NCBI GenBank assembly: GCA_030123765.1
Contig: JASJXX010000002.1
Location: 459-64,458, forward strand
Source: Actinomycetota bacterium
GTDB taxonomy: Bacteria > Actinomycetota > Acidimicrobiia > Spongiisociales > UBA5794
DNA: 64,000 nt
Direction of reading: 5' to 3'
The notes below the pieces were generated by a model. That model was not told the DNA's origin. It saw nothing but the letters and a program-made list of their open reading frames with translations, and did not search any database. Shown here piece after piece: positions 46,292 to 62,423 of the stretch. Position numbers and translations under genes: made by a program. Within the stretch, counting starts at the first letter, position 1; the number at the start of each line of letters is the position of its first letter.

Positions 46292-47752
46292 CTACGCCTC
46301 GTCGACTGATGCGTTAAAGGATTCGATCATCTCGTCGATCGGATCTACCAACGCCTGAATACCCGTCCAGTAGTCCGAGTCGTACCACTGGGACTGGATC
46401 TCCTCATACGTCTTACCCTGCTGTTCGACCCACGTGTAATACTTCAGGTTGTGGACTCGCTTACGCTCGTAGTAGTCGAGCTCCTGCACATGTTGGAGGC
46501 TCTGGCCCATGAGATGCTGGTGGTAGGCGGCCGCAGCATCATGCGCCGTGAACTCGCCCCGCTCGTCGTTGAGTTCCGCCAGACGCGACCCGTACATCTC
46601 CATCGAGTCCGTCCCGACCGTCATCACGACGTCGTTCCCTGTGAGCTCGTACCACTTCGCGAACTTGATGGCCATCAACATGTTCGCGACCCCGGAGATA
46701 CCAAGGAGCGGAAGCTTCTCGATGAACGCCGCAGATGCTCCCTGGGCAGCCAGGTAGGCAAGGCCTGCAGGCTCGTTAAAGAGACGGATCAGGCTGATCG
46801 ATGACTCGTCATCGATCCCCATCACCATGTCTGTGTTGCGCACGTTGTGGATCCACGGGATGTGCTTGTCCCCGATCCCTTCTATCCGGTGCTCACCAAA
46901 GCCGTTGTAAAGCATTGTCGGGCACTCGGTCGCTTCACCCGCAACGATCTTCGAGTTCGGATACTGCTGTTTGAGGTAGTCTCCCGACGCGATCGTTCCG
47001 GCCGAGCCCGTTGTCAGGGTCACGCCGGCGAACCGGTCGAGCGGGCCCATGACCTCCCTGAGGACCTCGAACATGGCCGGGCCTGTGACCGAGTAGTGCC
47101 AGAGATAATTTCCGAACTCGTCGAACTGGTTGAAGATCACGAGATCCTCGCCCGAGACCCGCAACTCGTTGCACTTGTCGAAAATCTCTTTGACGTTCGA
47201 CTCGGTTCCCGGCGTCCTGATGATCTCGCCTGCCACGCTCTCGAGCCAATGGAACCGTTCGGCACTCATCCCTTCAGGGAGGATCGCGATCGACTCGCAC
47301 CCGAGGAGATTCGAGTCGTAGGCGCCGCCCCGACAGTAGTTGCCGGTCGAGGGCCATACAGCCTTCTGCGTTGCGGGGTCGAACTGGCCGCTGACGAGCC
47401 TCGGGACGAGGCAGCCGAACGCCGCGCCGACCTTGTGGGCGCCGGTCGGAAACCACTTTCCCTCGAGCATGATGATGCGAGCGTCAACACCGCTGACCTC
47501 GGGGGGAACTTCGAAGTAGTTCACCCCACCAAACCCTCCGCCCGAGGGTGTCGGGTCGTTGTGCCAGGTGATGCGGTACAGGTTGACGGGGTCGAGATCC
47601 CACAGCCCGACGCTGCCGAGGCGCTGCTTCACCTCTTCAGGGACCAGGCTCGGGTCCCGCATCTGCTTGAACGTCGGGATCTTGAAATTCCGCGCCTTTG
47701 CCTGGATGACGGCGGAGCGGAGAACAGACTCGTTGACGGTGAGGTCGATCAT
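46292..47752 (-). CDS. Fold-type II PLP-dependent enzyme (cysteine synthase/CBS-like core with long N- and C-terminal extensions)
   Basis: The candidate PLP-lysine segment is FPTGAHKVGAAFG, followed by WPSTGNYCRGGAYDS...AILPEGMSAERF, which parallels the PxGSxKDR...SGNxG...MPExMSxER pattern. It is 486 aa and the last gene of the carbamate-kinase operon. Confidence 0.7.
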   Translation of the reverse strand: MIDLTVNESVLRSAVIQAKARNFKIPTFKQMRDPSLVPEEVKQRLGSVGLWDLDPVNLYRITWHNDPTPSGGGFGGVNYFEVPPEVSGVDARIIMLEGKWFPTGAHKVGAAFGCLVPRLVSGQFDPATQKAVWPSTGNYCRGGAYDSNLLGCESIAILPEGMSAERFHWLESVAGEIIRTPGTESNVKEIFDKCNELRVSGEDLVIFNQFDEFGNYLWHYSVTGPAMFEVLREVMGPLDRFAGVTLTTGSAGTIASGDYLKQQYPNSKIVAGEATECPTMLYNGFGEHRIEGIGDKHIPWIHNVRNTDMVMGIDDESSISLIRLFNEPAGLAYLAAQGASAAFIEKLPLLGISGVANMLMAIKFAKWYELTGNDVVMTVGTDSMEMYGSRLAELNDERGEFTAHDAAAAYHQHLMGQSLQHVQELDYYERKRVHNLKYYTWVEQQGKTYEEIQSQWYDSDYWTGIQALVDPIDEMIESFNASVDEA

Positions 47753-47777: not shown

Positions 47778-49031
47778 TCAATTGCTCAGGGCTGCTTTGA
47801 GCGCCTCGAGGTTCGGGTCGATGTACATGGGCTCGGTCCCGACCGCGGCTACAGCGCTCATGACCGAGGCAACGTCCTTGAGGCCGCTCCCGGTCGCGAG
47901 CATCACGACTCGGTCTCCGGCTCCGATGAGACCACGGTCAAGAGCCGCGACGATACCGGCGTACGGCGCAGCTCCCGCCGGTTCAGCGAAGACGCCCGAT
48001 CCGCGCGCCAACGTCGGTATTGCGGCAAGAATTTCGTCGTCTGCGACACGGAGATACGCTCCCCCCGTCTCGGTGACGGCTGCCATCGCCTTGATACGGT
48101 CACGGGGCAGATCGGCACTGATCGAGTCGGCAACAGTCTCCGCAGAGATAGGGGGCTTGGTCAGCACGTCCTCACCGCTCTCGAAGGCTTGAACGAGATA
48201 GTCACTCCCTGCGGCCTGAATGCCGAAGATACGCGGCACGCGGTCGATCCATCCGAGGGCGAAGGCATCCTTCACGGCCTTGTGGACCCCGCCGATGATC
48301 GACCCGTCGCCGACGCTCACGAAGATGGCGTCGGGGGCCTCCCATCCGAGGTCTTCGAGGATCTCGAGACCGGCGGTTTTCTTCCCCTCCGTCATGAACG
48401 GGTTGTACCCGGTATTGCGGTTGTACCAGCCGTACTCGGCGACGGCCTCCATGCAGAGTTCGAATGCGTCGGTGTACGTGCCATTGACGAGAGCGACCGT
48501 AGACCCGTACGCGAGCAACTGGGCGATCTTCGCTTCCGGCGCGGAGGAGGGGACGAATATCACGCTGCGCAGCCCGACGCTCGCCGCGATTCCGGCGAGG
48601 GCTGCTGCGGCATTCCCCGTCGACGCGGTGGTGACGACCTCCGCCGCACGCGCCTGCGCCTTGACGACGGCCATCGCCGAGGCACGGTCCTTGAGCGACG
48701 CCGTCGGCTGACGCCCCTCGTCCTTTACCCAGAGGTTCGCTATCCCGAGCCTGGCCGCGAGTGGCTTCACGTCATAGAGCGGCGTCCCTCCGATGCTGAG
48801 CGGCGGGACCACCGTGTCGCTGGCGAGCGGCATGAGCGGGAGATATCGCCACATCGTGCGATCTCGATTCTCGGCGAGTACCTCGCGCGTGAAGGTTGCT
48901 CCGATGCGCTCATAGTCGTAACGGACATCGAGTATCCCCTCGTTGCCGTGATCCGTGCAGACGTAACCTGCAAAGTCTTCCGGGTACATCGTGCCACAGA
49001 TCACGCACGCGAGTCCGATGACGTTACTCAT
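47778..49031 (-). CDS. Threonine synthase-like PLP enzyme with N-terminal zinc-ribbon
   Basis: It has the N-terminal CVICGTMY...YVC, then GGTPLY, KDEGRQPTASLKDRAS (PLP Lys) and TASTGNAAAALA. It is 417 aa and has an ATGA overlap with carbamate kinase. Confidence 0.8.
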   Translation of the reverse strand: MSNVIGLACVICGTMYPEDFAGYVCTDHGNEGILDVRYDYERIGATFTREVLAENRDRTMWRYLPLMPLASDTVVPPLSIGGTPLYDVKPLAARLGIANLWVKDEGRQPTASLKDRASAMAVVKAQARAAEVVTTASTGNAAAALAGIAASVGLRSVIFVPSSAPEAKIAQLLAYGSTVALVNGTYTDAFELCMEAVAEYGWYNRNTGYNPFMTEGKKTAGLEILEDLGWEAPDAIFVSVGDGSIIGGVHKAVKDAFALGWIDRVPRIFGIQAAGSDYLVQAFESGEDVLTKPPISAETVADSISADLPRDRIKAMAAVTETGGAYLRVADDEILAAIPTLARGSGVFAEPAGAAPYAGIVAALDRGLIGAGDRVVMLATGSGLKDVASVMSAVAAVGTEPMYIDPNLEALKAALSN

Positions 49032-49969
49032 CGAACGATCCTGGTGCCGGTCTCGCCGGCCATGGCCCGCTCGAGGTTCTCAGGATTTGTGATCAGTGCT
49101 TCGCTGCCTCCAGCCTCGAGGAACTGGACGACGGCACGCATCTTGGGGGCCATCGAACCCTCGGCGAAGTGTCCGCCCTCCTCAAGGTACGCCTTCACCT
49201 CGTCGAGCGTGAACTCATCCATCCACCGCTGATCCGGTGTACCGAAGTTGAGCGCGACCTGCTCGACTGCGGTGCAGATGAGCAGGAGATCGGCTCCGAT
49301 CTCGCTCGCCAGGAGCGCCGACGCGAGATCCTTGTCGATCACCGCCGCGATCCCTTCCAAATCTCCCTCTTCGTTCACAACGACCGGGATACCGCCGCCG
49401 CCGACGGCGATGGTGACGATTCCGGCGTCAACGAGGACCCGGATCACATCAAGTTCGACGATCCGCATCGGATGGGGGGAGGCCACGACACGACGCCAGC
49501 CGCGCCCGGCATCCTCAACGACATCCCAACCCTCCTCGTCGCGCCGGCGCACTGCCTCGTCCTCGTCCATGAAGGATCCGATTGGCTTCGTCGGCTTGTC
49601 GAACGCCGGATCGGCACGATCGACCTCGACCTGTGTGACAACCGTGACGACGCTCTTGTCGATGCCGCGCTGGCGAAAGTCGTTGACCAGGTTCTGCTGG
49701 AGCATGTACCCGATCGCGCCCTGTGTGTCAGCCCCGCAGTAATCGAGCGGGACCTCGTGAAGCTCGTTACTCGCAAGCTCGGACCGTCGCAGGATGAAAC
49801 CGATCTGGGGTCCATTGCCGTGAGAGATCACGACGTCCCACCCCTGCTCAACGAACGTTGCGATACGGTCGTCGGTCTCGGCCGCGGCTGCGTACTGGTC
49901 CTGGACCGACTGGTGCCTGGCGTCCGGGATCAGCGAATTACCGCCAATGGCGATAACGAGTCTGGGCAT
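49028..49969 (-). CDS. arcC: Carbamate kinase
   Basis: It has MPRLVIAIGGNSL and VISHGNGPQIG and is 313 aa, matching the amino-acid-kinase fold of ArcC/YqeA type. Its start overlaps the upstream stop (TAATG). Confidence 0.9.
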   Translation of the reverse strand: MPRLVIAIGGNSLIPDARHQSVQDQYAAAAETDDRIATFVEQGWDVVISHGNGPQIGFILRRSELASNELHEVPLDYCGADTQGAIGYMLQQNLVNDFRQRGIDKSVVTVVTQVEVDRADPAFDKPTKPIGSFMDEDEAVRRRDEEGWDVVEDAGRGWRRVVASPHPMRIVELDVIRVLVDAGIVTIAVGGGGIPVVVNEEGDLEGIAAVIDKDLASALLASEIGADLLLICTAVEQVALNFGTPDQRWMDEFTLDEVKAYLEEGGHFAEGSMAPKMRAVVQFLEAGGSEALITNPENLERAMAGETGTRIVR

Positions 49970-50928
49970 TACTCCCAGGCTCCGAGCACGGACGACAGCA
50001 GAGCCATGCGCATCACGACACCGTTGTAGGCCTCCTGCCAGTACCGGGCATGCTTGAGCTGGTCAACCTCCGGGAGCAGCTCGTCCATTCGCGGGAGCGA
50101 GTGGAGGATGATCGAGTCGCCCTTGGCCCGCTTCATGACCTCAGGAGTGATCTTGTAGTTGGCCGGGGTGAGGCCGTAGTCGTCGGGCCTCTCCTGAACG
50201 GAGAGGGTGTAATCGGGCTGGATGACCGGCTCCATGTAGATCACGTCGGCTTCGGCGATGACATCGTCGATGTGATCGACGACACGGTAATTCGTGCCCT
50301 TCTCGTCGAGCTCGGCAAGGAACTCCGGGAGAGGGGACATCTCCTCGGGAGCGAGGATGACCATCTCGACGTCGAATTGTGACAGGGCGTATCCGAGGGA
50401 GTGCATCGTCCGCATCCGGTGGTCACCGATGGCGACGAACGTGAGCCCGTCGATGGTGCCCTTCTCCTTCAACACGGTGTAGAGATCCGTGAGGATCTGG
50501 GTCGGATGCTCACCCCAACCGTCACCGGCGTTGATGACCGGGATTGAGCACCACTTGGCGGCCTCGTGGGGAGCACCCTGCTCAAAGTGGCGCATGACCA
50601 GGACATCGCCGTAGTACTCCAACATGTGGACCGTGTCTTTGATCGACTCCTGGTAGAAGTCGCCGGCACGCGTCATCTTGGCGTCCGAGAAGCCCGTCAC
50701 GTGACCGCCGAGGCGGTGCATCGCGGCCTCGTGGGCGAGCCGCGTCCGTGTGGAGGGCTGATAGAACGCGGTCACAAGCGTCTTGTGGGCAAGGAGATCC
50801 GTGTTTCGGCGTTCCCGGGCGATCGGCTCAAGGCGGTCGGCAATCTCGAAGAGGTGGAAGAACTCGCTCCGCTCGAAGTCCTTGAGGGAGAGAATGTCGC
50901 GTCCGGTGAAGCTACGCATGCCTGGCAT
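49969..50928 (-). CDS. ATCase-fold carbamoyltransferase with non-canonical acceptor site (not a plain PyrB)
   Basis: The carbamoyl-phosphate motifs STRTRLAHE, VMRH, GEHPTQ and the ATCase-type LHSLPRMDEL are present. The E. coli PyrB segment YMTRVQKER (Arg229, Gln231) reads YMEPVIQPD here. Confidence 0.8.
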   Translation of the reverse strand: MPGMRSFTGRDILSLKDFERSEFFHLFEIADRLEPIARERRNTDLLAHKTLVTAFYQPSTRTRLAHEAAMHRLGGHVTGFSDAKMTRAGDFYQESIKDTVHMLEYYGDVLVMRHFEQGAPHEAAKWCSIPVINAGDGWGEHPTQILTDLYTVLKEKGTIDGLTFVAIGDHRMRTMHSLGYALSQFDVEMVILAPEEMSPLPEFLAELDEKGTNYRVVDHIDDVIAEADVIYMEPVIQPDYTLSVQERPDDYGLTPANYKITPEVMKRAKGDSIILHSLPRMDELLPEVDQLKHARYWQEAYNGVVMRMALLSSVLGAWE

Positions 50929-50956
50929 CCTTTGAGTCGGCTTGGTACATTGGCCA

Positions 50957-50966
50957 TACTATAGTA
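50957..50966. promoter_or_regulatory. Perfect 10-bp palindrome TACTATAGTA in an AT-rich divergent promoter region (candidate GntR/HutC operator)
   Basis: It lies between the divergent starts at 50928 (-) and 50982 (+). It is flanked by GTACA repeats (50946-50950 and 50964-50968) and overlaps -10-like hexamers TATAGT, TACAAT and TATTAT. Confidence 0.45.
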
Positions 50967-50981
50967 CAATATTATGACCCT

Positions 50982-51734
50982 ATGCCATGCGGAGTGCTCC
51001 CGATGATTACCCGCAACCCGTCACTCACCGACCAGGTGAAAGCGCACATCAAAGAGCTCATCCTCACCGACGGTTTCGAGGATGCCCGAATCCCCCCCGA
51101 GACGGAGCTCGCCGCCGACCTCGGAGTCAGCCGCACCACCGTCCGCGACGCGCTGAGTCGCCTCCAGAGCGAGGGAGCGATCTATCGCCGTCAGGGCGCA
51201 GGCACCTTTGTCAACCAGCAGGGCCTCCAGATCAAGTCCCGCCTCGAAGACATCTGGTCCTACGAGAAGCTCCTCGAAGACCACGGATTCGAACCGTCGG
51301 TGCGAGTGCTCGCCGCATCCAAGGCTCCCGCCGACTCCCCCACCGCCGAGGCCCTGGGCCTCAACGACGGCGACATGGTGCTGATCATCGAGAAACTCTT
51401 CCTCGAAGACGAGAAGCCGGTCATGCTGACGATCAATCGCATCCCGACCCACTTCCTGAGCGGAACCGACTACGCCGACGATGAGGCGGCCCCGATCTAC
51501 GAGTTTCTCCAGGACCACTGCGACCGCTCACTGAGCTACTACCTCTCAGAGATCATCCCGGTCGCCCTCGACGCCGACACGGCGTCCAAGCTCGGGGTTG
51601 ATCCGGGCACACCGGCGATCTCATTCGACGAGATCGGATTCGACCAATCCAACGAGCCGCTCGTGCGGGCGACGTCACACTTCCGCGATGACCTCCTTCG
51701 GTTCCGGCTCATCCGCAAGAGAAGCGGGGCATGA
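50982..51734 (+). CDS. GntR family transcriptional regulator, HutC subfamily (UTRA effector domain)
   Basis: It has the winged HTH ETELAADLGVSRTTVRDALSRLQSEGAIYRRQGAGTFV followed by a UTRA-like C-terminal domain. The alternative start is ATG 51003. Confidence 0.88.
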   Translation: MPCGVLPMITRNPSLTDQVKAHIKELILTDGFEDARIPPETELAADLGVSRTTVRDALSRLQSEGAIYRRQGAGTFVNQQGLQIKSRLEDIWSYEKLLEDHGFEPSVRVLAASKAPADSPTAEALGLNDGDMVLIIEKLFLEDEKPVMLTINRIPTHFLSGTDYADDEAAPIYEFLQDHCDRSLSYYLSEIIPVALDADTASKLGVDPGTPAISFDEIGFDQSNEPLVRATSHFRDDLLRFRLIRKRSGA

Positions 51735-51775: not shown

Positions 51776-52750
51776 ATGCAGACCTATCTGCGGGGCCGCG
51801 ACATGATCACGACCCAGGAGTGGACCAAGGACGAGCTCGACACGGTGATCGATATCGCCCTCGACCTGAAACGCCGACGGGCTCTCGGTGAGCCGCACGC
51901 TCTGCTACGCGACAAGGTCCTCGCGATGTTGTTCTTCTTCTCAAGCACTCGAACCAGAGCAAGCTTTGAGGCCGGCATGGCCCAGCTCGGCGGCCACGCC
52001 ATGTTCCTCGACTCGACGAGCACCCAGATCGGCCACGGCGACACCTGGAAGGAGATCGGAGACATTCTGGGCCGCTACAACGATGGGATCGCCATCCGCC
52101 AGGTCGACTGGGGCATCGGCAACGACTACATCCGCGCCGTTGCGGAGGCCAGCCGCACCCCGGTGCTCAACATGCAGTGCGACTGGTATCACCCCTTCCA
52201 GGCACTTGCGGACCTGCTGACGATCATCGAGCAGAAGGGCGACCCCCGCAAGCTCACCATCAACATGAGCTACGCGTACGCAGCCAGCTATCAGAAGCCC
52301 ATCAGCGTGCCGCAGAGCCTCATCCTGCTCATGACCCGGTACGGCGCGAACGTGCGCCTCACCCATCCGCCGGAGTTCAAGCTCATGCCCGAGATCATCG
52401 CTCAGGCTGAGGAGAATGCCAAGAAATCCCACGGGTCCTTCGAGATCGTCGAAGACTTCGAGGAGGGGATGCGCGGCGCAGACGTCGTCTACGCCAAGGC
52501 GTGGGGTTCGATGCTCACCACCTCTGACCATGAAGAGTCAGCAAAGATCTCGGCGCATTACCAGGACTGGATCGTCGACCCGAGGCGGATGGAGATGGCC
52601 CACGAGGATGCCATCTACATGCATCCGCTCCCGGCCGACCGAAACGTAGAAGTGGCGGACGCCGTCATCGACGGGCCATCAAGCCGCGTGTTCGACCAGG
52701 CCGAGAATCGGCTCCACGTGCAGAAGGCGGTGATGGCGCTCACGATGTGA
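51776..52750 (+). CDS. YgeW-like (knotted) carbamoyltransferase
   Basis: It has SSTRTRASFE. NMQCDWYHPFQALADL matches E. coli YgeW NLQCDIDHPTQSMADL. SYQKPISVPQSLILLMTRYGANVRLTHP matches SYGKPLSVPQGIIGLMTRFGMDVTLAHP. It also has YMHPLPADR. The RBS AAGGAG lies 6 nt before ATG 51776. Confidence 0.8.
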   Translation: MQTYLRGRDMITTQEWTKDELDTVIDIALDLKRRRALGEPHALLRDKVLAMLFFFSSTRTRASFEAGMAQLGGHAMFLDSTSTQIGHGDTWKEIGDILGRYNDGIAIRQVDWGIGNDYIRAVAEASRTPVLNMQCDWYHPFQALADLLTIIEQKGDPRKLTINMSYAYAASYQKPISVPQSLILLMTRYGANVRLTHPPEFKLMPEIIAQAEENAKKSHGSFEIVEDFEEGMRGADVVYAKAWGSMLTTSDHEESAKISAHYQDWIVDPRRMEMAHEDAIYMHPLPADRNVEVADAVIDGPSSRVFDQAENRLHVQKAVMALTM

Positions 52751-52801: not shown

Positions 52802-53380
<579 letters not shown>

Positions 53381-53714: not shown

Positions 53715-54860
53715 ATGCCTCCTCACGCATGGACTGTGCACAACCCGACCGGCAGTCGCCGCGTCATTGTCACGAAGGAGCTCCCCGGGAGCCGGTGGCT
53801 CCACATCCTGACTGCCGCCGACTGTCGTGTGGAGGTCTGCACATCGGATACCGCCCTCACCGTCGATGAGATCGCCGGACAGATCGGTGACTCCTGCGAC
53901 GGAGTGATCGGCCAACTGACCGAAGACTGGAGCGCCGAGCTCTTCGCCATCCTTGCCGCAGCGGGAGCGAAGGCCTACTCGAACTACGCGGTCGGGTACA
54001 ACAACGTCGACGTCAACGGAGCGACGGCTGTAGGCATCCCGGTCGGGAACACGCCGGGCGTTCTCACGGAGACGACGGCGGAGATGGCTGTTGCGCTGAC
54101 CTTCTCGGCCGGTCGCCGTATCTGCGAGGCTGACAGGTTCATGCGCGACGGGAAGTATCACGGCTGGCTCCCGAGCCTGTTCATGGGGAAGCGTTTCCAC
54201 GGTGAAACCGTCGGCATCGTCGGTGCGGGACGGATCGGCGCTGCCTACGGGAGGATGATGGTCGAGGGTCACAAGATGAACCTCGTCTACTTCGATCTGT
54301 ACCCCAACGAGGCGCTCGAGCAGTACGTCAGTGCGTACTCGGCCTTCATCCAGGCCCGGGGAGAGGAACCGGTGACCTGCCGCCGGATCGCGACGATCGA
54401 AGAGCTACTCGCACTCTCAGACATCGTCAGCCTCCACACGGTTCTCGATGACAGCACGCATCATCTCATCAACGCCGAGCGACTGGCAGCGATGAAACCG
54501 GATGCGATCCTCATCAACTCGAGCCGGGGTCCCATCATCGACGAGGCAGCGCTCGTTGCACACTGCCGGACACATCCACAGTTCACCGCAGGCCTTGACG
54601 TGTTCGAAGACGAGCCCGCCATGAAGCCGGGCCTCGCCGATCTCGAGAACGTCGTCATCGTGCCGCACATCGCGTCCGCGTCGAAGTGGACCCGCGAAGG
54701 CATGGCGACCCTCGCGGCAGCGAACGTCGCAGCCATCCTCCAGGGGTACCCCTTGTGGAGCGGTGACGACGTTCTGCCATTCCTCTCGGGTGACGTGCCC
54801 CAAGCGGCGCCGAGTATCGTCAATGCCGTTGAACTCGAACTGCACGAGAAGGGAACCTAG
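53715..54860 (+). CDS. hprA: Hydroxypyruvate/glyoxylate reductase (glycerate dehydrogenase), plant HPR1-like
   Basis: It looks colinear with plant peroxisomal HPR1 from memory. Matching blocks include CDGVIGQLTEDW, YNNVDV, GNTPGVLTETTAE, GWLP, VGIVGAGRIGAAYGRMMVEG, LDVFEDEPAMKPGLADLENVVIVPHIASASKWTREGMATLAA and APSIVN. Confidence 0.85.
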   Translation: MPPHAWTVHNPTGSRRVIVTKELPGSRWLHILTAADCRVEVCTSDTALTVDEIAGQIGDSCDGVIGQLTEDWSAELFAILAAAGAKAYSNYAVGYNNVDVNGATAVGIPVGNTPGVLTETTAEMAVALTFSAGRRICEADRFMRDGKYHGWLPSLFMGKRFHGETVGIVGAGRIGAAYGRMMVEGHKMNLVYFDLYPNEALEQYVSAYSAFIQARGEEPVTCRRIATIEELLALSDIVSLHTVLDDSTHHLINAERLAAMKPDAILINSSRGPIIDEAALVAHCRTHPQFTAGLDVFEDEPAMKPGLADLENVVIVPHIASASKWTREGMATLAAANVAAILQGYPLWSGDDVLPFLSGDVPQAAPSIVNAVELELHEKGT

Positions 54861-54864
54861 AAAA

Positions 54865-56058
54865 ATGCGTATCGCCGATCGTATCGCCGACCTCGGGACC
54901 GAGACCGCATTCGCGGTGTCGGGCGAGGCTGCAACCTTTGCCGCACAAGGGAACCGGGTATATCCCTTCCATCTCGGAGACATCAACCTTCCTACCCCGT
55001 CGACCGTCGTCGAAGGGGCTGAGAAGGCGATCGCGGATGGCAAGACCGGGTACTGCCCGAACGCCGGGATCCCACAGCTCCGCGAAGCCATCGCCTCTAA
55101 CGTCGCTGCCTCCCACAAAACCGATTACACGGCCGAGAACGTCGTGATCCAGCCGGGTGGCAAGCCGACGATCGGTAAGTTCATCCTCACGCTGATGAAC
55201 CCGGGAGACGAGGTGCTCTACCCGAACCCGGGGTACCCCATCTACGAGTCCCAGATCGAGTTCCACGGTGGAGTCGCCGTCCCGTACGGGTATGTCGAGG
55301 GTGTCAAGAACTTCGAGTTGGACTTCGATTCGATCGAGCGTGGCATCACGGAGAAGACCCGCCTCCTGATCCTCAATGACCTGCAGAACCCGATGGGCGC
55401 CGAGTGCTCCATCGAGGAGCACGAACGGCTCGCCGAAATCGTCCGCGCACACGACCTGTACGTCCTCGCCGACGAGGCCTACTTCGACATGCGCTACTCG
55501 GGGGAGAGCACATCCTTCGTTGAGCAGCCCGGCATTGCGGAACGAACTGTCGTGTTGTACACCTTCTCAAAGAAGTTTGCAATGACCGGGTGGCGCCTCG
55601 GTGCGAGCATCGGCCCGAAGGAGATCATGGAGGTAATCGCCAAGATCAATGTCAACGACGAATCCTGCTCGAACCACTTCGTCCAGTACGGCGCTCTCGC
55701 AGGGCTACGCGGGGACCAGAGCGAGGTGCAAGCGATCCTCGACACGCTCGAAGCACGAAGGGACGCGACCGTCAACGGGTTAAACGCGATCGACGGGATC
55801 ACCACGTTCACGCCCGACGCCACCTTCTACCTGTTTCCCAACGTCACCGAGCTGATGGAGCGGAAGAACATCAAGAGCTACGAGGTGTTCCGCCGCGCGG
55901 CCCTCCACGCCACGGGGGTGTCGTTCACCTCCCGGATCCACTTCGGCCGACAGGTCGATGACGAGTCGAACCGATACATCCGCTTCGCCTACTCAGGCAT
56001 CGACGTCGCCGACATCGAAGAGGGCCTCGGCCTCTTCAAGGAGTGGGCAGAGCGGTAG
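54865..56058 (+). CDS. Class I/II PLP-dependent aminotransferase
   Basis: It has the PLP-lysine region YTFSKKFAMTGWRLG, NPGYPIY, and LILNDLQNPMG. It is 397 aa and starts 5 nt after the hprA stop. Confidence 0.85.
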   Translation: MRIADRIADLGTETAFAVSGEAATFAAQGNRVYPFHLGDINLPTPSTVVEGAEKAIADGKTGYCPNAGIPQLREAIASNVAASHKTDYTAENVVIQPGGKPTIGKFILTLMNPGDEVLYPNPGYPIYESQIEFHGGVAVPYGYVEGVKNFELDFDSIERGITEKTRLLILNDLQNPMGAECSIEEHERLAEIVRAHDLYVLADEAYFDMRYSGESTSFVEQPGIAERTVVLYTFSKKFAMTGWRLGASIGPKEIMEVIAKINVNDESCSNHFVQYGALAGLRGDQSEVQAILDTLEARRDATVNGLNAIDGITTFTPDATFYLFPNVTELMERKNIKSYEVFRRAALHATGVSFTSRIHFGRQVDDESNRYIRFAYSGIDVADIEEGLGLFKEWAER

Positions 56059-56068
56059 CCCGAGGGGG

Positions 56069-56656
56069 CTACTCGCTCTGCAGTTCCTCGTAGTCTCGGG
56101 GGGTGTTGATGTCGCGAGGTGCACTCTGCGCCACCGCAACTTTTACCACGCGGTCGTCCTGCGCGTCGACAAGGAGGCGCCACAGCACCTTCTCCCCCAC
56201 CATCGACGCAGCACACTCCACCGCGTCGCGTGACAGAAGGAAAGGGTGGGCGACCCGGTCGCGGTACGCGGCCACCGCTGCCCAGGGTCTCTCCTCCGTC
56301 CAGACCCCGACCATCGTATTGATGACGGTGGTCCGAACCTGGGGCAGATCGCCCGCCACGAGCAGGAATGCGGCGGCGTCAGGATCCGCGGTAGTCGCCG
56401 TGAGGAGTGACGACATGTTCCCACGGCGGTAGTCCGGATTCGTCACGACCGTCACGGAGACGGCCTTGATCGACGCTTCGACCATCTCTGCATCGCACCC
56501 GGTGACGACGATCACCCTGTCAAGCATGCTCGCCTGGACCGCATCAATCGTCGCGTTGAGTACCGTCGTCCCCTGGTACTCCAGCGTGAGCTTCGATGCT
56601 GCCATCCGCGTCGAGGCGCCTGCGGCGAGAACGACCCCGACGATTGGACGCGGCAT
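56069..56656 (-). CDS. mocA: Molybdenum cofactor cytidylyltransferase (MocA-like nucleotidyltransferase)
   Basis: It has VVLAAGASTRM, matching the MobA/MocA NTP_transf_3 fold. It is the last gene of the Mo-hydroxylase operon. Confidence 0.8.
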   Translation of the reverse strand: MPRPIVGVVLAAGASTRMAASKLTLEYQGTTVLNATIDAVQASMLDRVIVVTGCDAEMVEASIKAVSVTVVTNPDYRRGNMSSLLTATTADPDAAAFLLVAGDLPQVRTTVINTMVGVWTEERPWAAVAAYRDRVAHPFLLSRDAVECAASMVGEKVLWRLLVDAQDDRVVKVAVAQSAPRDINTPRDYEELQSE

Positions 56657-58876
56657 TCAGACCCCGACAATGTCGGTAGGGAGCACCGGAACCCTCGTCA
56701 GTGATCTACCCGTCGCCGCTCGAATAGCCGCGACGATCGCCGGTGTCGAACTGATCGTGGGTGACTCCGCTATCCCCTTCGCCCCGAAGGGACCCCAGTG
56801 GTCCCCCTCTTCGATGATCCGGACTTCGACGTCGGGGGCATCGAGGAACGTCGGAATCAGGTAGTCGGTGAACGTCGGATTCCGGATGACACCCCCGTCA
56901 ATGACAAGCTCCTCCATCACCGCGAAGCCCATGCCTTGCATGATGCCACCCTCGAGCTGCCCCACTATCGCCTGAGGATTGAGTGCCCTGCCGACATCCT
57001 GAGCCGTATCGACACGGACCACGCGCACGAGGCCGAGCTCCGGGTCGACGTCCACCACGGCACGGTGGGCAGCGACGACGAACCCGGCGTGGATCTCCCC
57101 CTGGCCGTCGGCGTCAGGCGGGTAGGTCTTCGGATGCCTGAAGCGAACATGACATTCGACGGGGCCATCGCTGCAGATCTCGTTGACCGTCGCGACAAGC
57201 TCGCCCTGTTTGTACACACCATCATCGCGGAGCTCGTCTCCGCCGTGGAGCGAGAGAATCTGATCACGGAGCCCGACGGCAGCATCATGCACGGCGCCCC
57301 CGGTCATCTGGGTCTGACGGGACGCCGAAGTGGACCCGGCCGAACCGATCTGTGAGGTGTCCTTCCATACGACAGCTACTCGATCAACTCCCAGAACGGT
57401 CCGGGCGATCTGCTGGCAGACGGTGACAAGACCCTGTCCCACCTCTATCGCCGCCGTGTGGATCTCGATGCCTGCGGGGGTCATCACCACCCGGGCCTCG
57501 GCGAAATCGTCGAAGCCTTCGGAGAAAGCGAGGTTCTTCAACCCGACGGCGTACCCGACGCCGCGAACGACCGCTGACCGAGGCGTCGTCAACCCCGTCC
57601 CGCCGGGAGCGAGCCGCGGGTCGTCCGAGGGGATCGGATCCGGAATCGGTATCGATTCGAGCGCATCGATCACCGCGACCGTCGGGAGCGAGCCCTGTAT
57701 GACCTGGCCGGACGTGGCAAAGGGGTCGCCGGGAGCGAGCGCGTTGCGCCGCCGGAGTTCGAGGGGAGCGAGGCCGATCGCCTCAGCGAGGCTGTCCATC
57801 TGGCTCTCGGACGCGAAGCAGGCTTGCACCACGCCGAATCCGCGCATCGCACCCGCCGGAGGATTATTCGTTCGGACGACCACCGCATCGATGACGACGT
57901 TGTCGCAACGATACGGGCCAACGCTGAAGAACGCTGCGTTGGCTATGACCGCCGGGCTCGTGTGGGCGTAGGCCCCACCGTCGAGAATCAGCCGTGCCGT
58001 GACCTTCACCAGATTCCCGTCCTCGTCCGCCTCGTGGCGGTACCACATGCGTGACGGGTGCCGCTTCACATGACCGACGAACGACTCAGATCGGTCGTAC
58101 ACCATCTTCACGCTGCGGCCGGTCGCGAGGGCGAGCATGGCGACGTGGATGTGCAGCGAGATGTCCTCCCGCGAGCCGAACGCGCCGCCGATCCCTGCAG
58201 GGTGGCAACGGACCTGATCGGGTTCCAGATCGAGGCATGCGATGATCTGGCGGTGGTCCACGTGGACCCACTGGCTCGTGATGTACAGGTCGAGACCTCC
58301 CTCCCCGTCCGGGATCGCGAATCCCGCCTCAGGTCCGAGCGGCGCCTGATCCTGCGTCGCTGTCTCGTAGAACCCCTCGACGACAACACTCCCCTCTGCC
58401 GTCTCGTCCCCGCGGCGGATCCTCATCTCGCGGAATGTCGAGCCGATCTCCGCAGCTCTCTCAGGATCATCAAGCGGGTCAAGCGGCTCCCACACCGCCA
58501 CGATCGCCGCAGCGGCACGCCTCGCGGTCTCCTCGTCGTCGGCTGCCACTACGGCAACCGGTTCACCCCAATATCTGGCTGTTCCGTCGCAGAGCACAGG
58601 CTGATCCTGCTCCACCTGACCGAACATGGGGCTACCGACCACGTCGTCCTGCGTCAGGACAGCGTGCACGCCGACCATCGCGAGGGCGGGGCCGATGTCA
58701 AGTTCCGTCAGCGTGGCGTGAGCGTGCGGGCTCCGCAGCGTCGCGCCCCACAGCATCCCCGGCGAGGACAGATCGGACGCGAAGGCGAAGTTCCCTGTGA
58801 CCTTCGGCTCTCCGTCCGGCCTCCCGACGCTGGTACCGATGCCCCCCCGTACCCTGGGCAGCGTTCGAGTCGTCAT
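56657..58876 (-). CDS. Xanthine dehydrogenase family, molybdopterin-binding large subunit
   Basis: It is 739 aa with the N-terminal a/b-hammerhead (GRPDGEPKVTGNFAFASD) and the Moco domains GIGGAFGSRED and GPFGAKGIAESP. Confidence 0.9.
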   Translation of the reverse strand: MTTRTLPRVRGGIGTSVGRPDGEPKVTGNFAFASDLSSPGMLWGATLRSPHAHATLTELDIGPALAMVGVHAVLTQDDVVGSPMFGQVEQDQPVLCDGTARYWGEPVAVVAADDEETARRAAAAIVAVWEPLDPLDDPERAAEIGSTFREMRIRRGDETAEGSVVVEGFYETATQDQAPLGPEAGFAIPDGEGGLDLYITSQWVHVDHRQIIACLDLEPDQVRCHPAGIGGAFGSREDISLHIHVAMLALATGRSVKMVYDRSESFVGHVKRHPSRMWYRHEADEDGNLVKVTARLILDGGAYAHTSPAVIANAAFFSVGPYRCDNVVIDAVVVRTNNPPAGAMRGFGVVQACFASESQMDSLAEAIGLAPLELRRRNALAPGDPFATSGQVIQGSLPTVAVIDALESIPIPDPIPSDDPRLAPGGTGLTTPRSAVVRGVGYAVGLKNLAFSEGFDDFAEARVVMTPAGIEIHTAAIEVGQGLVTVCQQIARTVLGVDRVAVVWKDTSQIGSAGSTSASRQTQMTGGAVHDAAVGLRDQILSLHGGDELRDDGVYKQGELVATVNEICSDGPVECHVRFRHPKTYPPDADGQGEIHAGFVVAAHRAVVDVDPELGLVRVVRVDTAQDVGRALNPQAIVGQLEGGIMQGMGFAVMEELVIDGGVIRNPTFTDYLIPTFLDAPDVEVRIIEEGDHWGPFGAKGIAESPTISSTPAIVAAIRAATGRSLTRVPVLPTDIVGV

Positions 58877-59340
58877 GCTCCCTCACTTGTCAGTGCGGTG
58901 AAGGCGCGCAGGATCGCCCCGTATCCAGTGCACCGGCAGATATTGCCAGATAACGCCTCACGAATCTCAGGCTCGGTCGGGTGCGAGTTCGTCTCGAGCA
59001 GATGCACGCCAGTAACGATGAACCCGGGAGTGCAGAAACCACACTGGACGGCACCCTCTGCGAGCATCACCTCCTGGAGTGGGTGCAACTGCGCGCCCTC
59101 CCCGATTCCCTCGACGGTCGTCACTGTCGCGCCGTCGGCGTCCGCCGCCATGACAAGACACGAGCAGACGGCTGCACCGTCGAAGATGACGGTGCATGAT
59201 CCACACTCCCCCTGCTCACACGCGTCCTTCGTACCCGGCAGACCAAGATCGTTACGAAGTGTGTGCAGCAGGCTCTCGGAACCCGCAACATCCACGGAAC
59301 GTCGCTCTCCGTTAACGGTGATCACGATGGGCACGGTCAC
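58873..59340 (-). CDS. [2Fe-2S]-binding small subunit (CoxS/XdhC-iron-sulfur type)
   Basis: All eight Cys ligands are present: CEQGECGSCTV...CSC and CGFCTPG...CRCTGY. The GTG 59340 start overlaps the upstream TGA. Confidence 0.9.
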   Translation of the reverse strand: MTVPIVITVNGERRSVDVAGSESLLHTLRNDLGLPGTKDACEQGECGSCTVIFDGAAVCSCLVMAADADGATVTTVEGIGEGAQLHPLQEVMLAEGAVQCGFCTPGFIVTGVHLLETNSHPTEPEIREALSGNICRCTGYGAILRAFTALTSEGA

Positions 59341-60137
59341 GCGAGACACCGTTCGGCGAGCCTGCGCGCAAGCACCCCCGCAGCGTGACGTCGATACCCC
59401 TCCGTCGATCGGTGATCGGTGATCGGGCGAACCTCCTCCGACACGATCCGGGAGAACTCCTTGAGCGCCTCTTCGGTGATCCTCGCCTCGGCATTGAGCA
59501 TCTCCTCTGCCCTCGTCACCCGTATAGGCGTCGGCGCCACCGATCCGAGAGCAACACGGAAACCGTCGTCGCCGCGCATGACCACGCAACTCACAATGGA
59601 GATGACCATCGCGTTGCGAGTCCCGACCTTGGCGAACTCCTGAGCCGTAGGGACGTCATCGGGAATAGCGACACCGGTGACCACCTCGTCAGGTTCGAGC
59701 GAGGTGTGTTTGACACCGGTGAAGAACTCGTTCCAGGGAATGACTCGCTCGCCACGCTCCTTCGATCGGACAACGATTCGGGCATTCGCGGCAGCGATCC
59801 AGGGAAGGCCGTCACCAGCCGGGCTCGCGGTCGCGACGTTGCCTCCAATCGTTGCAACGGCACGGATCTGCGGCGAGCCGATGGTCCGGGCAGCCTGAGC
59901 GAGAGCGCCGTGATCCGAGCCCTCGAGTCGGGCCCAGGTAACGCCGGCTCCGATACGGTTCGATGTCATCTCCCTGAGCTCTTCTACGCGTCGCAGGGAG
60001 ATGACCCGCGACGGCCGGCGGTGGGCGATGTTCACCTCCACCATGAGGTCGGTCCCGCCGGCGAGGAGCTGCGCGTCGGGTCGTTGAGCCTTCGCTGCGA
60101 GCGTTTCGTCGAGATTCCGGGCAGCGAGAAAGTCCAT
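59337..60137 (-). CDS. FAD-binding subunit of molybdopterin dehydrogenase (CoxM-like)
   Basis: It has LLAGGTDLMVEVN and ATIGGNVATASPAGD (FAD_binding_5). The start is ATG 60137 (MDFLAARNLDE). Confidence 0.88.
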   Translation of the reverse strand: MDFLAARNLDETLAAKAQRPDAQLLAGGTDLMVEVNIAHRRPSRVISLRRVEELREMTSNRIGAGVTWARLEGSDHGALAQAARTIGSPQIRAVATIGGNVATASPAGDGLPWIAAANARIVVRSKERGERVIPWNEFFTGVKHTSLEPDEVVTGVAIPDDVPTAQEFAKVGTRNAMVISIVSCVVMRGDDGFRVALGSVAPTPIRVTRAEEMLNAEARITEEALKEFSRIVSEEVRPITDHRSTEGYRRHAAGVLARRLAERCLA

Positions 60138-60217
60138 GACCGTACCGTAGCCCGCGGCCCGCTGCCACTTGTCCGTCGCCCGTGGCCGGCGAAGGGCTCC
60201 CGCTGCTCCTCTCCCCG

Positions 60218-61582
60218 TCACCCCACCAGACGCTTCGCGGCCCGATTGTGCTCCTCAATCAGCTTCGGTAGCTCGACGCCCACCAGTTCGCCGTCGCGGA
60301 CGACAGGTTTGCCGTGTACGAAGGAGTGGTCCACGCGCACAGCAGCGGCGAACAGGACTGCCGCGACGGGATCGTGCAACGCCCCGGCGTACTCGATGCG
60401 GTCGAGCGAGATAGCGATGAAGTCCGCGCCTCTGCCAGGCTCAAGCGAACCGATGTCGTCCCTCCCGAGAACCGCTGCCGATCCGCGGGTCGCGATGCGC
60501 AGAACCTCCCTAGCAGTGAGCAGCCTCCCGCCCTCGATCGAGGGCGCCGCCGCGAGGCGGGAGAGCAACATGGCCTGCCGGGCCTCTCCGAGCAGGTGGC
60601 TGCCGTCGTTGCTCGCCGATCCATCGACGCCGATGCCGAGCCGGACGCCGGCCGCCAGGTAGCGGCGAACCGGAGCGATACCCGAACCGAGGCGCATGTT
60701 CGACGATGGGCAGTGGGCGATCCCGGTGCCAGATTCAGCGAGACGGTCGATCTCACCATCGTTGATGTAGACACCGTGGGCGTACCACACGTCATCCCCG
60801 ACCCACCCGAGATCCTCCATGAGCTCGACGGGACGCCGCCCGAACCTCTCGATGCAGAACTGCTCCTCGTCGTACGTCTCAGCAACGTGGGTGTGGAGGT
60901 GGACGCCGTGACGGCGCGCAAGGTTCGCCGATTCGCGCATCAGCTCCTCCGTCACCGAGAAGGGGGAACACGGGGCGACCACGATTCGGGTCATGGCGCC
61001 CGGAGCCGGGTCGTGGAACGCTTCGATGACCCTCTCGGTGTCGAGCAGGATCGCCTCTTGGTCCTCGACGACGGAGTCGGGAGGCAGCCCGCCGTCGCTC
61101 TCGCCGAGGCTCATCGACCCACGCGCTGCGTGGAAGCGCAGACCGACCCCGGCGGCACCCTCGATCTGGTCGTCGAGCCTCGATCCGTTAGGGAAGACGT
61201 ACTGGTGGTCTGACGAGGTCGTGCACCCGGAGAGGGCGAGCTCCGCGAGGGCGAGCCGGGTCGCGATCCGCACGTCGTCGGGTGTGATCCGTGCCCAGAT
61301 TGGGTAGAGCGTGCGGAGCCAGTCAAAGAGGCCGACGTCCTGAGCGCCGGGGACCGCCCGCGTGAGGGTCTGGTAGAAGTGATGATGCGTATTGATGAGC
61401 CCGGGGAGCACGACGTGCCCGGAGAGATCGAGAACTTCGTCTGCGCTGTCGGGGAGCTCGGAGGTCGTGCCTACGTGTTTGATGATCCCGTCCACGGCGT
61501 AGAGACCGCCGTCCGCGATCTCGGTTCCGTCGTCGTCCATGGTGGCCAGAACCTGCGCGTGCCGGACAAGAAGTGTGCTCAT
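60218..61582 (-). CDS. 8-oxoguanine deaminase-like amidohydrolase (guanine deaminase/SsnA superfamily)
   Basis: It has the metal ligands NTHHHFYQTLTR, HTHVAET and VDGSASND. The subgroup blocks SSDHQYVFPNGSRLDD and RFHAARGSMSLGESDGGLPPDSVVE match what I remember for 8-oxoguanine deaminases. Confidence 0.75.
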   Translation of the reverse strand: MSTLLVRHAQVLATMDDDGTEIADGGLYAVDGIIKHVGTTSELPDSADEVLDLSGHVVLPGLINTHHHFYQTLTRAVPGAQDVGLFDWLRTLYPIWARITPDDVRIATRLALAELALSGCTTSSDHQYVFPNGSRLDDQIEGAAGVGLRFHAARGSMSLGESDGGLPPDSVVEDQEAILLDTERVIEAFHDPAPGAMTRIVVAPCSPFSVTEELMRESANLARRHGVHLHTHVAETYDEEQFCIERFGRRPVELMEDLGWVGDDVWYAHGVYINDGEIDRLAESGTGIAHCPSSNMRLGSGIAPVRRYLAAGVRLGIGVDGSASNDGSHLLGEARQAMLLSRLAAAPSIEGGRLLTAREVLRIATRGSAAVLGRDDIGSLEPGRGADFIAISLDRIEYAGALHDPVAAVLFAAAVRVDHSFVHGKPVVRDGELVGVELPKLIEEHNRAAKRLVG

Positions 61583-61682: not shown

Positions 61683-62423
61683 ATGACCATGCAGTACTCC
61701 CGACCCCTCACCCTCGATGAGGCCACCACCCTTGCAGCCCGGCCCGACACCGTGATCATGGCGGGGGGAACGTCCGTTAACGCCGGAGGCGGTAGCTCCG
61801 GTGTCACCGCCGTGGATCTGCAAGCGCTCAACCTCGCCGGAATCGAATCTCTTGGTGCGTTCATCCGCATCGGGGCGATGACGCGCCTTCAGGCACTCGT
61901 GGAATCAGACCTCGTCCCGTTCACTCTCCGCGATCTCGCCCGACGCGAAGCCCCCAGCACGATCCGTAACGCGGCGACGGTCGGTGGTACCGTCGGTGCC
62001 GCGGATCCCGAGAGTGAACTCCTCGCCGGCCTGCTCGCGTTCGGTGCCGTCGTCACTCTCGCGAGGGTGGGTTCAACGACCGACCATGCCCTCGACGACA
62101 TCCTCCACGATCCAGGGCTGATCAGCCAGGCGATCATGACGAGTGTCACGATCCCGACCACCGGAGTCGCTGCCGCCGAACGTACCGGTCGCACGCCGAT
62201 GGACCGACCGATCGTGATGGTCGTTGCCCACAGAGGCGCGGCAGAAGCCGTCCGTATGGCCGTGACCGGAGTCGCACACGTTCCGGTGGTCGTGGATCCA
62301 GAGCGGATCAAAGACCTCGATCCGCCGTCAGACTTCCGCGGGTCACCCGACTATCGAAGGCACCTCGCCACCGTGCTCGCAGACCGGGTCCTTACCGCAG
62401 TCACGGAGAGTGATCCGGAATGA
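61683..62423 (+). CDS. YgfM-like short FAD-binding subunit
   Basis: It is 246 aa with IMAGGTSVN and ATVGGTVGAADPESE (FAD_binding_5). The RBS GAGGAG lies upstream, and there is an ATGA overlap with the next gene. Confidence 0.8.
   Translation: MTMQYSRPLTLDEATTLAARPDTVIMAGGTSVNAGGGSSGVTAVDLQALNLAGIESLGAFIRIGAMTRLQALVESDLVPFTLRDLARREAPSTIRNAATVGGTVGAADPESELLAGLLAFGAVVTLARVGSTTDHALDDILHDPGLISQAIMTSVTIPTTGVAAAERTGRTPMDRPIVMVVAHRGAAEAVRMAVTGVAHVPVVVDPERIKDLDPPSDFRGSPDYRRHLATVLADRVLTAVTESDPE

Follow-up and report, generated by a model that had tools for sequence, protein, structure and literature searches.

A pseudo-aspartate carbamoyltransferase coupled to carbamate kinase in Acidimicrobiia and its proposed role in a variant reductive urate pathway

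What is the substrate of an enzyme that has the fold of an aspartate carbamoyltransferase (ATCase), lacks the residues that bind aspartate and is translationally coupled to a carbamate kinase? This question is raised by a gene found in a 64,000-nucleotide stretch of DNA, referred to here as the window, from an uncultured member of the Acidimicrobiia (positions 459 to 64,458 of contig JASJXX010000002.1, assembly GCA_030123765.1). A preliminary description of this stretch had suggested a catabolic, phosphorolytic role on a non-aspartate ureido compound. Our analysis revealed that the encoded protein is a further member of a pseudo-ATCase family that was already described in 2013, so the family is not new, and that the annotation of these proteins as ATCases is almost certainly wrong. 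On balance, we consider it probable that the protein is a catabolic carbamoyltransferase in a variant of the reductive urate (2,8-dioxopurine) pathway, in which it would phosphorolyse the 2-ureido group of a 2,3-diaminopropionate ureide. The gene is as follows.

49969..50919, minus strand: pseudo-ATCase, with an ATCase fold, an intact carbamoyl-phosphate site, no RxQxER motif, HSLP for HPLP and a TRAGDFYQES 80s loop.

The open reading frame (ORF) as listed spans 49969..50928 on the minus strand and encodes 319 amino acids. The true gene most likely starts at the second ATG and encodes 316 amino acids, since the closest database homologues (the best 120 of 7,892; 316-332 amino acids) all start with MRSF and an AAAGGA ribosome-binding site is found upstream of that ATG in the window. 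The plus strand reads CATTA at 49967-49971, and the TAA stop codon (49971-49969) has base 49969 in common with the ATG of the carbamate kinase (49969-49967). The TAATG overlap and the position outside a pyr operon, both noted in the preliminary description, are therefore real: no pyr gene is present among the annotated genes of the window, and a tblastn search of the window found no second ATCase with an RxQxER motif.

With regard to the fold, both transcarbamylase domains (Pfam OTCace_N and OTCace) were found, and the closest solved structures are ATCases, namely those of P. abyssi (1ML4, E 4e-73) and E. coli PyrB (~1e-58). The AlphaFold2 model has a mean predicted local distance difference test (pLDDT) score of 94.5 and a predicted template modelling (pTM) score of 0.93, and its confidence dips only in the 80s and 240s loops. 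Comparison of this model with ATCases bound to N-(phosphonacetyl)-L-aspartate (PALA), which had been put forward as a check, gave template modelling (TM) scores of 0.88-0.91 and thus an ATCase fold. The profile scores are divided: of the two NCBIfam ATCase models, TIGR00670 is passed (253.6 bits, cutoff 236.95), whereas NF002032 is not (232.7 bits, cutoff 263), and the YgeW model TIGR03316 gives only 30.6 bits against a cutoff of 500. The two Pfam domains and the passing of TIGR00670 explain why every source names the protein aspartate carbamoyltransferase.

The catalytic site was mapped by profile-profile alignment (hhalign), with eight sequences of the clade on one side and 36 canonical ATCases, headed by E. 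coli PyrB, on the other. The PyrB reference sequence is identical to PDB 1EKX; the residue correspondences given here are those of the profile alignment rather than of a ligand-level superposition. The carbamoyl-phosphate and catalytic residues S52-T55 (STRT), R105, H134 and Q137 are all kept, as is R167, and the carbamoyl-phosphate site (STRTR, the arginine of VMRH, HPTQ) is intact, as had been described. In ATCases, R229 and Q231 bind the beta-carboxylate of aspartate, while S80 and K84 come from the adjacent chain. None of these four residues is found in the pseudo-ATCase. In the 240s loop, T228 is replaced by glutamate, R229 by proline, Q231 by isoleucine, E233 by proline and, after a five-residue insertion, R234 by valine. 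The RxQxER motif, which is present in all known ATCases (PMC4581275), is thereby lost entirely. The 80s loop, TRAGDFYQES, carries a two-residue insertion and the changes S80 to arginine, K83 to phenylalanine and K84 to tyrosine. A pairwise HMMER alignment can place the glutamine of VIQ onto Q231 by opening one gap, but MAFFT and hhalign do not, and Arg229 is lost in every alignment made. The by-eye reading of the preliminary description, namely Arg229 to Pro, Gln231 to Ile and a divergent 80s loop, was thus correct. Its statement that an ATCase-specific HxLPR(M/V)DE motif is intact holds only in part: HSLPRM is present, but P266 is replaced by serine, and HSLP instead of HPLP is diagnostic of pseudo-ATCases (PMC4016543).

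These changes are shared across the clade. In 90 clade sequences (72-100% identity) from Acidimicrobiia, Chloroflexota, Nitriliruptoria, Verrucomicrobiota and Zixibacteria, the motifs MTRAGD[FWY]YQE[ST], EPV[VI]Q[PA]DYT and HSLPR[MR]DE are nearly invariant, the second being present in 90 out of 90, and the carbamoyl-phosphate motifs STRTR, VMRH and EHPTQ do not vary. The changed motifs are thus under selection and are not a product of decay.

The closest described protein is A1SH59 of Nocardioides sp. JS614, which is 63% identical to the window protein (E 1e-149, with the published trimmed sequence) and, judged by this similarity, is its orthologue. A1SH59 was assigned by Barba et al. in 2013 to pseudo-ATCase 'subgroup 2', for which no function was proposed, and its gene adjoins a ygeW homologue (A1SH60), xdhABC and hyuA (PMC4016543). 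In their tree, A1SH60 is labelled YTC, alongside proteins from Anaerolinea, Moorella and Petrotoga (PMC4016543). The signature of the Nocardioides-type subgroup, HSLP together with V-x-P in place of R-x-Q, is recognisable in the window protein, which has HSLPRM and IQP where most clade members have VQP. In the same paper, the row numbers of Table 1 disagree with the subgroup numbers in the text, and the tree labels HPLA and H[ST]LP denote the marine group and the ureidoglycine carbamoyltransferase (UGTCase) group, respectively (PMC4016543). Literature searches for an experimentally characterised member of the subgroup found none.

Among 1.84 billion representatives searched, two at 73-75% identity grouped with the window protein in a tight clade, and all other proteins were at most 50% identical. 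The same search returned a large and diverse set of ATCase-branch proteins with a 'T-RAGD-xY-E' 80s loop and without RxQxER. This set (P0129-P0261) contains many variants of the 240s loop and of HxLP (HPGPR, HTMPR, HPLPR and others) and presumably holds several further transcarbamylase specificities; one of its members, P0129, adjoins an HMGL-like enzyme and an aminotransferase.

The gene context is conserved. One genome per species was scanned, which gave 80 loci in at least four phyla, and co-occurrence was counted within 10 kb. The pseudo-ATCases of these loci are 83-100% identical to the window protein in Acidimicrobiia and 72-77% identical in Anaerolineae, Nitriliruptoraceae, Verrucomicrobiia and Zixibacteria. 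A carbamate kinase accompanies the gene in 72 of the 80 loci and a second transcarbamylase of the YTC type in 67 (61-94% identity). Two types of pyridoxal phosphate (PLP) enzymes are also frequent, one ThrC-like (53/80) and one CysK-like (36/80), and a GntR/HutC regulator is present in 41 of 43 close loci. In nine Acidimicrobiia loci, a YgfK orthologue (TIGR03315, 890.9 bits, cutoff 835.3) directly follows the PLP genes, in most cases with a short SsnA-like amidohydrolase gene beside it. The genes beyond the end of the window were sought in its closest relatives by a metagenome scan anchored on the XdhD-like fragment: XdhD is followed by XdhC-YqeB (TIGR03309) and YqeC (PF19842), and then by HyuA or by YgfK and the SsnA-like gene. 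HyuA was found downstream of XdhD in ten loci (TIGR02033, 522.7 bits, cutoff 393). Finally, in two loci, L054 and L053 (Verrucomicrobia), and on contig L007, a YgeY orthologue (TIGR03526, ~470 against 321.5 bits) stands beside the pseudo-ATCase, and neither a YTC-type transcarbamylase nor a carbamate kinase gene was found in these three loci.

Most of these genes belong to the reductive urate pathway published in 2025, which comprises XdhD/YgfM, YgfK, SsnA, HyuA, YgeW, YgeY, YgeX and YqeA (bioRxiv 10.1101/2025.04.24.650524; PMC12507026). According to these papers, YgeW cleaves 2,3-diureidopropionate with phosphate, YgeY hydrolyses the remaining ureide to 2,3-diaminopropionate (DAP) and YgeX converts the latter into pyruvate; YgeW and YqeA thus yield ATP from 2,3-diureidopropionate (bioRxiv 10.1101/2025.04.24.650524), and YgeW, YgeY and YgeX turn the ureides into pyruvate (PMC12507026). 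The kinase in 72 and the second transcarbamylase in 67 of 80 loci, together with the surrounding purine-degradation genes, support the catabolic, phosphorolytic role first suggested for the pseudo-ATCase. From the active site and this context, we infer the substrate, the direction of the reaction and the ureido group that would be cut.

In the published pathway, urate is converted into 2,3-diureidopropionate via XdhD/YgfM, YgfK, SsnA and HyuA. In the variant proposed here, the pseudo-ATCase would keep the chemistry of ATCases: its carbamoyl-phosphate site, R167 as ligand of the alpha-carboxylate, and an attack directed at an N-alpha-carbamoyl group. With phosphate, it would remove the 2-ureido group from either 2,3-diureidopropionate or 2-ureido-3-aminopropionate. 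We assign the 2-ureido group to this enzyme because R167 and the carbamoyl-phosphate site are kept while the beta-carboxylate pocket is gone; the loss of this cationic pocket (R229, Q231, K84) and the invariant glutamate beside the lost arginine would suit a neutral ureido or an ammonium side chain. In N-alpha-acylated citrulline, it is the ureido group of the side chain on which AOTCase and SOTCase, the relatives of the YTC-type enzymes, act. For this reason, the 3-ureido group is assigned to the YTC-type neighbour, in whose stead a YgeY hydrolase may act in some lineages. Both carbamoyl phosphates would then pass to the translationally coupled carbamate kinase to give ATP, and the released DAP would be deaminated by the downstream PLP enzyme or enzymes. 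An initial assignment, in which the second transcarbamylase (the OTC-like gene) stood for YgeY and the pseudo-ATCase for YgeW, was dropped, as the OTC-like gene is the orthologue of the YTC-type A1SH60.

In its fullest form, the proposal describes an all-phosphorolytic reductive urate pathway, widespread in uncultured marine and sediment Acidimicrobiia and Anaerolineae, in which two unrelated transcarbamylases, the pseudo-ATCase (2-ureido) and the short YgeW-type enzyme (3-ureido), feed one carbamate kinase and PLP enzymes other than YgeX complete the degradation. This broader version is advanced tentatively, as a possibility with somewhat less than even chances. If true, it would double the substrate-level ATP yield per urate in comparison with E. 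coli, and the pseudo-ATCase would be the first ATCase-fold enzyme specific for N-alpha-carbamoyl-2,3-diaminopropionate or 2,3-diureidopropionate.

The window itself contains the XdhD-like, YgfM-like, xanthine dehydrogenase and MocA genes of the pathway. The features that surround the pseudo-ATCase gene are given below.

46292..47752, minus strand: CysK-like (cysteine-synthase-like) long PLP enzyme of 486 amino acids, with PF00291 and weak CysK-type matches.
47778..49031, minus strand: ThrC-like PLP enzyme of fold type II, with PF00291 and, at its N terminus, a Zn ribbon; its start overlaps the carbamate kinase stop by 4 nt.
49028..49969, minus strand: carbamate kinase, above cutoff with two NCBIfam models, NF009007 (397 bits) and TIGR00746 (379.6 bits).
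50949..50979, between the divergent GntR gene and the pseudo-ATCase gene: AT-rich operator-like inverted repeat; the gene strand reads GGTCATAATATTGTACTATAGTATGGCCAAT.
51003..51734, plus strand: divergent regulator of the GntR/HutC family that carries a UTRA domain; the listed ORF begins at 50982.
51776..52750, plus strand: second transcarbamylase, short YgeW-type (YTC), 67% identical to Nocardioides A1SH60.
53715..56058, plus strand: variable accessory genes, namely a D-2-hydroxyacid dehydrogenase (53715-54860) and a class I/II aminotransferase (~54865-56058).
56069..56656, minus strand: MocA-like molybdenum cofactor cytidylyltransferase (TIGR03310, 131.8 bits).
56657..60221, minus strand: three-subunit xanthine dehydrogenase, with a PucD-like Mo subunit (56657-58876), a PucE-like 2Fe-2S subunit (58873-59352) and an XdhB-like FAD subunit (59337-~60140).
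60218..61582, minus strand: amidohydrolase assigned to the 8-oxoguanine deaminase family (679.8 bits with NF006055, cutoff 532).
61683..62423, plus strand: YgfM-like FAD subunit (best NCBIfam match TIGR03312), its start fixed by comparison with L001.
62420..64000, plus strand: XdhD-like Mo/Fe-S subunit, truncated where the window ends (best match TIGR03313, 424 bits on the 526 residues present).

The pseudo-ATCase, carbamate kinase, ThrC-like and CysK-like genes thus follow each other in this order and in one direction. The ThrC-like enzyme scores 294 bits with NF006050, just under the cutoff of 303, and its best PDB match is the threonine synthase ThrC 2D1F (6e-50); we propose it as a functional analogue of YgeX. 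In the YTC-type neighbour, the motifs of ornithine carbamoyltransferase (OTCase) are gone in comparison with 1PVV, DxxxSMG being replaced by KxxxSML and HCLP by HPLP, and its NCBIfam scores are under all cutoffs. The amidohydrolase at 60218-61582 was considered as the ring-opening SsnA equivalent and rejected, given that it passes the 8-oxoguanine deaminase cutoff and reaches only 128 bits on SsnA models; a distinct, shorter SsnA-like gene is present in relatives, apart from this amidohydrolase, a 61-69% identical copy of which is found in 20 of 37 Chloroflexota-type loci.

Several observations weigh against the proposed pathway. On the ureido groups removed by YgeW and by YgeY, the papers of 2025 contradict each other (bioRxiv 10.1101/2025.04.24.650524 vs PMC12507026), which makes any order of the cleavage steps tentative. 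For E. coli, the (R)-isomer of the intermediate has been reported, while ATCases use L-aspartate. The window ends inside the XdhD-like gene, and YgfK, SsnA and HyuA were seen only in relatives. XdhD, YgfK and HyuA were not found within 10 kb in the Chloroflexota loci, including that of Pelolinea submarina (L073); apart from both transcarbamylases, the kinase and one PLP enzyme, these loci carry only the amidohydrolase, an adenine deaminase and a Bmp-type ABC transporter. Neither of the PLP enzymes is an orthologue of YgeX (NF006058, only 54 bits). Moreover, locus L082 has YgeY in addition to both transcarbamylases, and hence the alternation between the YTC-type enzyme and YgeY is not clean.

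In another reading, the purine genes would only feed the pseudo-ATCase with a different N-carbamoyl substrate, such as N-carbamoyl-beta-alanine, N-carbamoylglycine or a ureido-imidazole of the clostridial-type xanthine pathway. We regard this as unlikely. HyuA does belong to the dihydropyrimidinase family, FTCD and FolD genes are found near some clusters, the Chloroflexota clusters are without the upstream genes of the reductive pathway within 10 kb, and catabolic transcarbamylases for pyrimidine ureides were predicted in a 2015 review (PMC4581275). Nevertheless, the alpha-carboxylate ligand R167 is invariant, which favours an N-alpha-carbamoyl alpha-amino acid over a beta-ureido acid. A di-ureido substrate is implied by the constant company of a second transcarbamylase or of a YgeY hydrolase, and in Acidimicrobiia the YgfK, SsnA-like and XdhD genes are direct neighbours.

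Allantoate is also a di-ureido acid, and a UGTCase like Rxyl_2847 of Rubrobacter, which converts allantoate and phosphate into ureidoglycine and carbamoyl phosphate, would account for two transcarbamylases and one kinase if the second transcarbamylase acted on a later ureide, for example oxalurate. The UGTCases lie in the same ATCase branch, have H[ST]LP in common with the window protein and are likewise found next to a carbamate kinase in a purine-degradation context (PMC4016543, PMC4581275). This assignment nonetheless seems improbable to us, for reasons both of sequence and of context. In the published alignment, the C. ljungdahlii protein D8GTE4, taken for the UGTCase group, has a canonical 80s loop, SSV-AKDES, and PGCS at the position of RxQ, where the window protein has TRAGDFYQES and EPVIQP; the combination typical of UGTCases, G-x-[SC] at the RxQ position with an ATCase-like 80s loop (S102, K106), is absent from the window protein. 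Among the genes annotated in the window and in the examined loci there is neither an allantoinase nor a uricase, and the only nearby cyclic amidohydrolase scores 522.7 bits as a D-hydantoinase against 281 bits as an allantoinase. The linked XdhD, YgfM, YgfK, SsnA-like, YqeB/C and YgeY genes point to the reductive and not to the oxidative pathway, and the allantoate route needs no PLP enzymes, yet these are tightly linked.

The last two explanations appear very improbable. A genuine or reverse-acting ATCase, as annotated in databases, would fit the fold, the TIGR00670 score (253.6 > 236.95) and the name given by every source, but it is contradicted by the full replacement of RxQxER, a motif of all known ATCases (PMC4581275), the loss of K84, the NF002032 score under cutoff, the missing pyr context and the intact-motif ATCase that shares contigs with the pseudo-ATCase in relatives. 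If the protein were a paralogue without catalytic activity, whose only part is to assemble with the YgeW-type transcarbamylase or to regulate it, this could explain why the two genes stand together in 67 of 80 loci and why both are unusually conserved across phyla, but not why the carbamoyl-phosphate and catalytic residues are all invariant or why the pseudo-ATCase occurs without a YTC-type partner in L054, L053 and L007.

The intact-motif ATCase just mentioned is a 325-amino-acid protein with RIQKER, a K84-type 80s loop, R167 and HPLP, whose gene shares a contig with that of the pseudo-ATCase in close relatives. It lies 2-6 kb from the pseudo-ATCase gene in L044 (1838-2815), on the 2.75-Mb contig ctg125059 (L169:6001-6978, which equals L170:6652-7629) and in L173 (7001-7978), and it is also present in L172 (7001-7978). 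This third transcarbamylase is CAD-like (STRTS) and recurs beside the pseudo-ATCase cluster. In L173 it follows the short SsnA-like amidohydrolase gene, and in L172 it comes after genes for UbiX, for a decarboxylase of the UbiD family and for a Bmp-type ABC transporter. Either a housekeeping PyrB or a catabolic ATCase may be encoded here; as it is often inside or beside the same cluster, and next to UbiX/UbiD in L172, it is perhaps not the housekeeping enzyme. When the ATC_I-type PyrB of Acidimicrobium ferrooxidans, taken from the Barba alignment, served as the query, ATC_I-type genes were found in metagenome-assembled genomes (MAGs) of Acidimicrobiia, and no contig that carries one could be matched to a contig with a pseudo-ATCase. 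Given the 325-amino-acid protein, the pseudo-ATCase is not the sole ATCase-type gene in the genomes of those relatives. The expectation of another pyrB is borne out to that extent, namely by a further ATCase-type gene in relatives.

With regard to regulation, the inverted repeat at 50949-50979 is likely the operator of the GntR/HutC regulator, a prediction from sequence: the motif GGTCATCAT.TTGTA.TATAGTATGACCAAT recurs upstream of the pseudo-ATCase gene in many Acidimicrobiia loci (L009, L011-L018, L028, L033-L038 and others). The D-2-hydroxyacid dehydrogenase and aminotransferase genes, in contrast to the core genes, occur in only 9-11 of the 80 loci. An NADP-glutamate dehydrogenase fragment of 140 amino acids is encoded on the plus strand at 52958-53380; it covers profile positions 54-156 of 445 and then continues with a short unrelated tail. 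At the equivalent position in relatives, the glutamate dehydrogenase is intact (448 amino acids; L036:6781-8127, L113:7418-8764), and the fragment is probably a decayed gene.

The XdhC-YqeB and YqeC genes follow the XdhD-like gene at L106:12871-15196 and L117:7737-9679, and in 22-33 of the XdhD-anchored loci. These two genes are markers of the selenium-dependent molybdenum hydroxylase trait, which suggests that the XdhD-like enzyme of Acidimicrobiia uses a labile-selenium cofactor. The SsnA-like amidohydrolases (L034:14086-15108, L117:13164-14186, L169:1823-2953) are short, with 340-376 amino acids against ~442, cover profile positions ~57-346 and score below the SsnA cutoffs. Acidimicrobiia-type pseudo-ATCases (84-100% identity) in the same gene order were also found in MAGs named as Chloroflexota, Kiloniellales, Acidobacteria, Gemmatimonadales and Gammaproteobacteria (L010, L021, L025, L038 and L044), and these off-lineage assignments are probably binning errors.

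A compact one-strand operon is present in the cultured anaerobe Pelolinea submarina (L073; NZ_AP018437.1, 2567222-2588172). It opens with two EamA transporters and an 8-oxoguanine-deaminase-like amidohydrolase, followed by GntR and the pseudo-ATCase; next come the YTC-type transcarbamylase and carbamate kinase, then a Bmp/PnrA-type ABC transporter and, last, a ThrC-like PLP enzyme. This organism is tractable for testing the pathway.

The protein search returned 7,892 proteins at E <= 1e-30, the top 120 being at least 84% identical. Thousands of such proteins are named aspartate carbamoyltransferase, which inflates the apparent pyrimidine-biosynthesis capacity of Acidimicrobiia and Chloroflexota MAGs. 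The elucidation of the 2,8-dioxopurine pathway in 2025 allows a specific substrate to be proposed for a family that was flagged in 2013. If the proposal holds, it would give a function to a transcarbamylase clade that has so far had none, add a second ATP-yielding step to anaerobic urate degradation and bear on the published disagreement over the ureido group cleaved by YgeW-type enzymes.

Among known systems, Nocardioides A1SH59 has the motifs AKMTRAG.FYQES, GDMRMRTMHS, DVIYMEPVVQADYT and HSLPRMDEL in common with the window protein, along with a YgeW-type neighbour (A1SH60, 67% identical to that of the window) and a purine context with xdhABC and hyuA; xanthine dehydrogenase is present in the window itself, and HyuA only in close relatives. 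In contrast to A1SH59, the window gene comes from uncultured Acidimicrobiia, is coupled to carbamate kinase and is followed by two PLP enzymes. Rxyl_2847 of Rubrobacter xylanophilus, a UGTCase that cleaves allantoate with phosphate, represents the only pseudo-ATCase subgroup to have been assayed (PMC4016543). It resembles the window protein as an ATCase-branch paralogue without RxQ, with H[ST]LP, a carbamate kinase neighbour and a phosphorolytic role in purine catabolism, but differs in its 80s and 240s loops and in its oxidative context (uricase, allantoinase), as opposed to a reductive one (XdhD, YgfK, SsnA, HyuA). The ATCase catalytic chains of E. coli PyrB and P. abyssi 1ML4 are 36-41% identical to the window protein and have a very similar structure (TM 0.88-0.91), an identical carbamoyl-phosphate site and R167. 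They are set apart by T228E, R229P, Q231I, E233P, S80R, K84Y and P266S, by the insertions in both specificity loops, and by the window having neither a pyr context nor a regulatory chain gene.

YgeW of E. coli and C. sporogenes resembles the pseudo-ATCase in the proposed phosphorolysis of a DAP ureide that feeds a carbamate kinase, YqeA, but is a knotted transcarbamylase of the AOTCase/SOTCase branch, whose relative in the cluster is the neighbouring gene. The M20 hydrolase YgeY takes off the second ureido group of a DAP ureide and stands beside the pseudo-ATCase in the three loci mentioned above, but it works by hydrolysis, without a yield of ATP, and its fold is unrelated. Lastly, the catabolic OTCases and putrescine carbamoyltransferases (PTCases) of the arginine and agmatine deiminase pathways, which act with a carbamate kinase, belong to the OTCase branch, act on other substrates and work as single transcarbamylases, but they offer the same overall scheme, in which a ureide and phosphate give an amine and carbamoyl phosphate, and the latter gives ATP.

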